Assembly: GCA_043758895.1 (NCBI GenBank)
Contig: JAYVMP010000175.1
Coordinates: 2,764 to 66,763 of the forward strand
Reading direction: 5' to 3'
Length of the DNA: 64,000 nt
Origin: Bacteroidota bacterium
GTDB lineage: Bacteria; Bacteroidota; Bacteroidia; Cytophagales; Cyclobacteriaceae
The notes beneath the pieces are model-generated. The model was not told the DNA's origin. It did not search any database and worked only from the letters and a program-made list of their open reading frames with translations. Of this stretch, positions 10,564 through 10,805 are shown piece after piece. The stretch's first letter is position 1. Each line of letters opens with the position of its first letter. Both the position numbers and the translations under genes were made by a program.

Positions 10564-10623
10564 TTTATGAGGTATGATTTAAAATTTAGGATTTTAAAAT
10601 TTCGGGATTTATGATTTTGGATT

Positions 10624-10713
10624 TAATGTCGTTTCCTTAGGCCATTTTTGATCACCTCGCCTCGTTCCTCTCCAAAAGAGAGGATGTCAGAGGAGCTTAA
10701 GGAAACGACATTG
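10624..10713. mobile_element. MITE-like element, copy 1 (90 bp)
   Basis: TIR AATGTCGTTTCCTTA / TAAGGAAACGACATT; 10-bp flanking duplication ATTTTGGATT at 10614-10623 and 10714-10723; internal hairpin TCCTCTC-CAAAA-GAGAGGA. Confidence 0.8.
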
Positions 10714-10805
10714 ATTTTGGATTTGAAATCACGTGGCATCAGTAAACACAATGCGAGAAAGGTTTAAATGGGGAAATACTAAAAATTGTACTTGGTGAAT
10801 CATCA

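Follow-up and report, generated by a model that had tools for sequence, protein, structure and literature searches.

A MITE with IS4-type ends between mraY and murD of a Cyclobacteriaceae genome, and IS110-type elements nested in its sister copies

What is the short inverted-repeat sequence that separates mraY from murD in the dcw operon of this Bacteroidota bacterium, by what machinery did it arrive, and does it serve the operon in which it lies? The source assembly comprises 3.29 Mb in 287 contigs (44% GC, 95% complete), and the stretch analysed here, referred to as the window, is the 64 000 nucleotides at positions 2764-66763 of contig C175. The upstream gene of the pair, mraY, lies at 9334-10563 on the plus strand of the window (TIGR00445, 334.5 bits against a cut-off of 192) and the downstream gene, murD, at 10806-12161 on the same strand (TIGR01087, 390.3 bits against a cut-off of 212). 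The reading that we favour, with a probability of about 0.93, is that the intervening sequence is a MITE with IS4-type ends that was mobilized in trans by an IS4-family transposase and is carried as a tolerated passenger.

The element, referred to as copy 1, occupies 10624-10713 on the plus strand and is 90 bp long when read directly from the window. Its left terminal inverted repeat (10624-10641, plus strand) reads TAATGTCGTTTCCTTAGG, for which the family consensus is CAATGTCGTTTCCTTAAG, and the right repeat (10696-10713) reads CAATGTCGTTTCCTTAAG on the minus strand. The two arms agree at 17 of 18 positions and contain a 15-bp core, AATGTCGTTTCCTTA, that is perfect at both ends; a repeat finder similarly placed 18-nt arms at 10625-10642 and 10695-10712 with 94% complementarity. 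Both ends abut a 10-bp target-site duplication, ATTTTGGATT, found at 10614-10623 and at 10714-10723 and identical at 10/10 positions, and the order across 10614-10723 is ATTTTGGATT, TAATGTCGTTTCCTTAGG ... CTTAAGGAAACGACATTG, ATTTTGGATT. The interior contains a central hairpin (CCTCTC-CAAAA-GAGAGG, 10667-10683, plus strand), and as a 90-nt RNA the element folds with a free energy of -42.1 kcal/mol, compared with -19.0 +/- 3 for shuffled sequences (z = -7.7). The sole overlapping open reading frame, 42 codons on the minus strand with a TTG start, is spurious, and copy 1 is therefore a short non-coding sequence within the range of about 50-1000 bp that is usual for MITEs. The initial annotation had described a non-coding 90-bp element with a perfect 15-bp repeat core, an internal hairpin and an exact 10-bp flanking duplication, and direct reading and the ORF check bear out each of these features. 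The observation is thus confirmed. A second copy (copy 2, plus strand, 16982-17092 with its flanks) consists of a 91-bp element at 16992-17082, 89% identical to copy 1, between duplications of GGGTTTAATG at 16982-16991 and 17083-17092. All four exact occurrences of the core AATGTCGTTTCCTTA in the window are at the ends of these two copies.

The element belongs to a dispersed family. A scan of the source genome found approximately 95 occurrences of MITE-type ends and none for the reversed-pattern control. These ends delimit 47 paired-end elements, of which 41 are 84-92 bp long, five are 214-222 bp and one is 1646 bp. Together with about four further copies that are split over contig ends, this gives approximately 51 copies of the subfamily to which copy 1 belongs (MITE-1); copy 1 is 94% identical to the family consensus. 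A second and more diverged subfamily (MITE-2) has the ends CAATGTCGTTAAGTTAAG, the same inner hairpin, 10-bp duplications and approximately 20 copies, examples being found at C207:35549-35631, C232:5811-5901 and C219:48601-48690, and it is older than MITE-1. The genome therefore contains approximately 70 related copies, far more than the two on which the initial annotation had been based when it proposed a BLASTN-type count of copies.

Ten-base duplications flank these insertions in a highly regular manner. The duplication is perfect in 23 of the 47 paired copies and matches at 9/10 positions in a further 14, so that 37 of 47 have a match of at least 9/10, and its sequence is different at every site. 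On average 8.96 of the 10 bases agree in register, and only 1.9-3.4 when the flanks are shifted by 1-3 bases. The reconstructed targets form a palindromic consensus with T at -5 (36/47) and A at +14 (38/47), and with AAT...ATY inside the duplicated 10-mer. The insertion sites are strongly intergenic: 36 of 47 have no spanning open reading frame of at least 120 codons, compared with 9% of random sites. Pairwise identity among MITE-1 copies averages 88% and reaches a maximum of 98.9%, with no identical pair; the nearest sisters of copy 1, on contigs C69 and C89, are 97.8% identical to it. A lone 16-bp terminal repeat at C208:6490-6530, which lies between two GTTATTGAGC-like sequences, looks like the remnant of a MITE after deletion or excision.

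Several sister copies carry insertions of their own. The 1646-bp paired-end element (C11:9170-10815, outside the window) was considered as an autonomous parent of the family and rejected, as it is not an IS4-type transposon; it is a MITE-1 copy whose central hairpin is interrupted by an IS110-family element of 1555 bp. The recombinase gene of this element is frameshifted near its 3' end, its product matches DEDD_Tnp_IS110 (PF01548, 59.5 bits) and Transposase_20 (PF02371, 35.1 bits), and the left end of the element is a 280-nt non-coding region. Nine non-autonomous derivatives of 130 bp are also present, the first ~35 nt and last 14 nt of which match the ends of the 1555-bp element. Five of these lie in the intact copies of ~220 bp (C28:6473-6692, C248:2001-2220, C165:29686-29906, C36:23179-23400 and C219:26830-27043) and four in copies divided between contig ends (C183/C10, C229/C110, C44/C230 and C122/C11-end), which were rejoined via their 10-bp duplications; the nested repeats are the cause of these four assembly breaks. 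All ten inserts are found at CCTCT^CCAAAAG in a single orientation, in ten of the approximately 51 MITE-1 copies, and the core CT (AG on the strand of the element) is common to the target and the element end. No insert was found outside MITE copies in the source genome, and one MITE-2 copy contains a further relic. The corresponding point in copy 1, between 10671 and 10672 (CCTCT^CC), is unoccupied, as it is in copy 2.

The nested inserts have the properties of IS110-family elements, namely the two domains, the lack of terminal inverted repeats, specificity for one site and one orientation, and a core dinucleotide. A bridge RNA has been shown for IS621 (PMC11208160) and, by analogy, the C11 element would be expected to encode one in its left end of 280 nt. 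Two candidate guides lie there in the order expected: at 107 TTGTGGAG, corresponding to the left side of the target with the core, and at 183 TTGGTAG, corresponding to the left side of the donor with the core. Matches of this length (7-8 bases) are near chance. No right-hand guides were found in the left end, for which single-sequence folds were uninformative, and an Rfam search of the IS110 elements gave no match. Elsewhere in the genus, IS110 homologues reach no more than 41% identity and lie outside MITEs. On balance we lean towards the view that the central hairpin of the MITE is a programmed target of IS110-family recombinases, which are presumably guided by a bridge RNA. If this is correct the arrangement would be nested at three levels, with the host genome carrying an IS4-type MITE that in turn carries an IS110 element and a miniature derived from it, and the dead MITE family would provide a safe multi-copy landing pad on which copy 1 is an unoccupied target.

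The position of two MITE copies inside the essential dcw operon raises the possibility that copy 1 has been co-opted as an RNA processing or stability hairpin, or that the family is kept as a landing pad for IS110 elements. The strength of its fold would be in keeping with such a role, as would the conservation of the inner hairpin in both subfamilies and in other Cytophagales genomes and the use of one position by the IS110-type inserts in ten sister copies. The spacing of the two genes is also unusual. Both mraY and murD could be aligned in 57 of 60 congeners, in which the spacer is mostly 5-20 bp; the closest relative, whose mraY is 84% identical, has 237 bp of unrelated sequence in this place. 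Common descent can, however, explain why the hairpin is conserved, and the copies diverge freely (the mean pairwise identity of 88% given above). No terminator-like site or terminator-like tail was found at copy 1, and an Rfam search of this region of the window returned no family. Between co-directional genes the MITE copies are oriented 13:15; there is no strand bias and so no sign of a selected role in the RNA. Co-option is on these grounds unlikely, and copy 1 is most likely a tolerated passenger, which gives the operon a longer mraY-murD spacer and its transcript a hairpin of -42 kcal/mol. For the purposes of annotation, the MITE explains the unusually long dcw spacers of the source genome as well as many of its contig breaks.

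The mraY-murD spacer of one congener (locus L042, contig C132 of genome G018, about 1960-2330) contains a small open reading frame, MTKEELIARNRRFVIEVL..., whose product looks, on visual inspection, like a member of the four-helix-bundle 23S-rRNA-IVS protein family. The dcw spacers of the genus seem to collect small inserts.

The family of transposase responsible is indicated by the ends. The initial annotation had compared the MITE end with an IS4 end, and the IS4 sequence that it quoted is correct: the ends of IS4 in E. coli K-12 are TAATGCCGATCAGTTAAGG and TAATGCCAGTCAGTTAAGC. A search of the order with the pattern CAATGTCGTTNNNTTAAG gave matches in 48 of 401 genomes, representing 31 of 157 genera, and the reversed-pattern control matched in four genomes only. 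Some of these end pairs are 1.3-1.4 kb apart and delimit full insertion sequences of 1326-1416 bp, each with one open reading frame of 415-454 codons and perfect 10-bp duplications. Such full-length elements are present in three further genera of the order, and a profile built from their transposases located partners within the genus of the source genome. The same-genus elements are 1417-1443 bp long with perfect 10-bp duplications, and have ends of the form CAATGTCGTT(T/A)AGTTAAG that match copy 1 at 16/18 positions. In genome G425 the element is 1443 bp long, with CAATGTCGTTTAGTTAAG at both ends and the duplication AATCATTACT, and in G530 it is 1430 bp long, with ends of the same type and the duplication AATACCCAAT. 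Genome G512 contains four copies of 1417 bp, the ends of which are CAATGTCGTTAAGTTAAG and thus those of MITE-2, with duplications including ATTCTAAAAT and AATATATATA. The element of G489 (1434 bp) has the ends CAATGTCATTAAGTTAAG and CAATGTCATTAAGTTGTG, with 1 and 3 mismatches, and the duplication CCCTAACGGG. Seven full-length elements with perfect 10-bp duplications were found in all, and the length of the duplication thereby matches that of the MITE.

The transposases of these partners are recognized by PF01609 and, with scores of 159-171 bits (cut-off 115), by the NCBIfam model NF033592, 'IS4 family transposase'. Aligning three of them demonstrates that D136, D213 and the Y-(2)-R-(3)-E-(6)-K signature (Y316, R319, E323 and K330) are invariant, giving a complete set of DDE residues. 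Their identity to InsG of E. coli IS4 is low (23% over 282 residues, E = 2e-16), and the partners therefore represent a distant branch of the IS4 family. The ends of the same-genus elements differ from the MITE-1 end at 2 of 18 positions, where MITE-1 has TCC in place of TAG. Only the 18-bp ends are common to the MITE and the full-length elements and the subterminal sequence is not; the MITE is thus not a simple deletion derivative. The proposal of the initial annotation that copy 1 is a non-autonomous transposon of the IS4 family is supported by the ends of the same-genus insertion sequences, by the 10-bp duplications and by transposases that match the IS4 model. The search that it proposed, for a full-length insertion sequence with the same terminal repeat, is answered within the genus, where the ends are near-identical (16/18), and not within the source genome.

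A scan of all species-representative genomes for the exact 18-mer CAATGTCGTTTCCTTAAG showed that the 90-bp family extends to other Cytophagales, Cyclobacteriaceae and Chryseolinea MAGs. In further genomes the sequence between these ends is unrelated and 78-460 bp long, and 10-bp duplications are likewise present; the hosts include Flavobacterium, Niabella, Pinibacter, Terrimonas, Sphingobacteriales and Desulfobacteraceae MAGs. A 133-bp element in one Desulfobacteraceae MAG (locus L139, JAABRU010000054.1, 7811-7943) combines these 18-bp ends with a perfect duplication of 10 bp, ATTATAACTA. Its occurrence in a genome labelled as lying outside the Bacteroidota might be explained by the transposase having spread horizontally or by an error of binning.

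No intact transposase of the partner type was found in eight genomes that contain the exact end. Searches of five of these yielded nothing at E <= 1e-4; the matches in Niabella hirudinis (G549) were limited to three weak fragments, and those in a Sphingobacteriales MAG (G553) to one fragment riddled with stops. In Terrimonas ferruginea DSM 30193 (G547) there are 17 matches to N- or C-terminal fragments of the transposase, 16 of them at contig ends (L193, L196, L198 and L200-L212), and the exact CAATGTCGTTTCCTTAAG adjoins the fragment in all 15 of the 15 loci fetched. Such a pattern is the mark of an autonomous element that is present in many copies and was collapsed or broken in the draft assembly. 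The juxtaposition of fragment and exact end means that a cognate insertion sequence for this end exists, and that it does so outside the source genome; the exact-end autonomous element is seen solely as assembly fragments, and in another family (Chitinophagaceae). T. ferruginea DSM 30193 is consequently a good source of the cognate transposase.

In the source assembly itself the search for a partner gave a different result. Four DDE_Tnp_1 genes are present, on contigs C91, C16, C144 and C165, and all four were rejected as partners, their ends being unrelated to those of the MITE. A tblastn search of the assembly with the partner proteins gave only a weak match to an unrelated IS4-like gene. 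Inspection of the contig ends revealed no candidate transposase, and no transposase gene adjoins the lone terminal repeats at C69:12541, C82:19156, C43:23288 and C49:47. As the assembly contains no cognate transposase and every pair of copies differs, the MITE family appears to be immobile in this genome at present, a fossil, and its mobilization here may have stopped.

The only intact DDE_Tnp_1 genes of the assembly are those of an ISAs1-type element and of another IS4-like element. The former (C16:34470-35725) is apparently an intact insertion sequence with the ends CAGGGAAATCGCTTTTAA and a 377-codon DDE transposase, and is unrelated to the MITE. It might nevertheless be asked whether copy 1 is the MITE of another resident transposase family, either this ISAs1-type element, as ISAs1 elements generate duplications of about 8-10 bp, or a REP-like sequence moved by a Y1 (RAYT) transposase. 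We consider this very improbable. Neither the ends of the ISAs1-type element nor those on C91 resemble CAATGTCGTTTCCTTAAG, and the full-length elements that do have MITE ends encode transposases of the IS4 model. A REP sequence, moreover, is an imperfect palindrome that is associated with a Y1 transposase and is not known to generate target duplications, and the regular 10-bp duplication of the MITE family is at odds with this.

The initial annotation had placed the insertion in a heptamer array and cautioned that such an array could mimic a duplication. An AT-rich short-period array is indeed present at the insertion site (10576-10625), but it is weak: Tandem Repeats Finder reports either a period of 7 (6.9 copies, 62% matches, score 33) or a period of 15 (score 52). 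Arrays of short period are enriched among the insertion sites, with 9 of 47 compared with 21 of 500 random intergenic-like sites, yet they are not the rule, and the idea that the element specifically targets heptamer arrays is not supported. The enrichment probably arises because the arrays supply the AT-rich target motif. The caution over mimicry no longer applies, as at least 9/10 positions match in 37 of 47 copies, at sites of differing sequence throughout the genome, and the match collapses on a shift of register.

Empty sites in relatives lead to the same conclusion. The flanks of the 23 copies with perfect duplications were joined, and 20 of the joined sequences were searched against the six closest genomes. 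For the sister copy at C193:11371-11460 the predicted empty site, TTTTTATAGGCGGAGAGGGTGATTTTATAAAG, can be aligned over the whole 10-mer, with no gap, to TTTTTATAAGCTGGAAGGGCGATTTTATAAAG in G419, and similarly in G426, with 37 of 46 positions identical. For the copy at C264:1409-1498 a homologue with a single 10-mer is present in a third congener, G012. The empty alleles with one copy of the duplicated 10-mer that the initial annotation had proposed to look for in relatives are therefore found for these two sister copies. For copy 1 an empty site was sought in 60 congeners and was not recoverable, the spacer being unalignable although the genes align, because the spacers of the relatives are short or unrelated. 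That copy 1 is an immobile chance palindrome whose duplication is an artefact of a periodic AT-rich array, as the weak period-7 or period-15 array of the left flank and the GATTT-like words repeated near the site might suggest, has a negligible probability and is refuted by the sharply register-specific signal, by the 47 copies at unrelated sites (37 with 10-mers that match at 9/10 or better and are all different, and just nine in arrays) and by the single 10-mer at the two empty sites of the relatives.

A mechanism can be proposed for copy 1 as a MITE of the IS4 type. The two 18-bp terminal inverted repeats would be the only parts that function in transposition, acting as the binding and cleavage sites of an IS4-type DDE transposase that is supplied in trans. 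The cut-and-paste chemistry of the IS4 family has been established for IS10 and IS50, and by the same chemistry the transposase would excise the element and join its 3' ends to target phosphates with a 10-bp stagger. Repair of this stagger would then generate the two copies of ATTTTGGATT. The preferred target is AT-rich intergenic DNA with a palindromic arrangement, consisting of T at -5, an AAT-N4-ATY 10-mer and A at +14, and the weak arrays of some spacers happen to contain this motif.

Copy 1 is a new MITE of a known kind, and it leaves the current understanding of IS4 and of MITEs unchanged. Compared with IS4 of E. coli K-12 (insG), the founder of the IS4 family, the MITE end (C/T)AATGTCGTTTCCTTAAG agrees with TAATGCCGATCAGTTAAGG at 12 of 18 positions, and the ends of the full-length Cytophagales partners agree with it at 14 of 18. 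A long target duplication is found in both, but that of the MITE is 10 bp and those of E. coli IS4 are 11-13 bp, and the MITE has no transposase. The insertion sequences of the genus (G425, G530, G512 and G489) are closer, with 18-bp ends that match MITE-1 at 16/18 positions and MITE-2 at 18/18, and the end of the T. ferruginea element matches MITE-1 at 18/18. The full-length elements of the genus and of T. ferruginea resemble the MITE in their 10-bp duplications and similarly AAT-rich targets. They differ from it in their length of 1.4 kb, in encoding a transposase of about 445-450 residues, in subterminal sequences that bear no relation to the 54-bp interior of the MITE, and in their absence from the source genome. 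The comparison defines a MITE superfamily across the Bacteroidota, in which one 18-bp end and 10-bp duplications are combined with many unrelated inner sequences. It also offers a clear example from nature of a MITE family that has become an orphan, its autonomous partner surviving only in other lineages.

The BrickBuilt element of Porphyromonas gingivalis is a MITE the ends of which match IS5-family elements and the duplications of which are short and irregular (PMC4596501). Like MITE-1 it is short, intergenic, present in multiple copies and able to form a hairpin, only its terminal repeats match an insertion sequence and it has no remnant of a transposase. The two differ in that BrickBuilt has IS5-type ends and irregular duplications, whereas MITE-1 has IS4-type ends and a regular duplication of 10 bp.

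The nested inserts are most similar in behaviour to ISPpu9, ISPpu10 and MITEPpu9 of Pseudomonas putida, a system in which IS110-family elements insert into REP hairpins (PMC12288879). In both cases IS110-family (DEDD) elements insert into a repeated extragenic palindrome with specificity for site and orientation; as with ISPpu9, an AG dinucleotide is common to the target and the element end, and as with MITEPpu9, a short non-autonomous derivative has the same ends. Here, however, the elements enter the central hairpin of an IS4-type MITE and not a REP, and the derivative is only 130 bp long, with 9 of 9 copies inside MITE copies. The nesting of IS110 elements in the MITE is thus a modestly novel variant of the REP-targeting already described for this family. 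It provides a natural set of targets and donors, in a Cytophagales genome, for the choice of repeated hairpins by IS110 elements, and it is the more interesting lead from this locus and the only part that merits follow-up.
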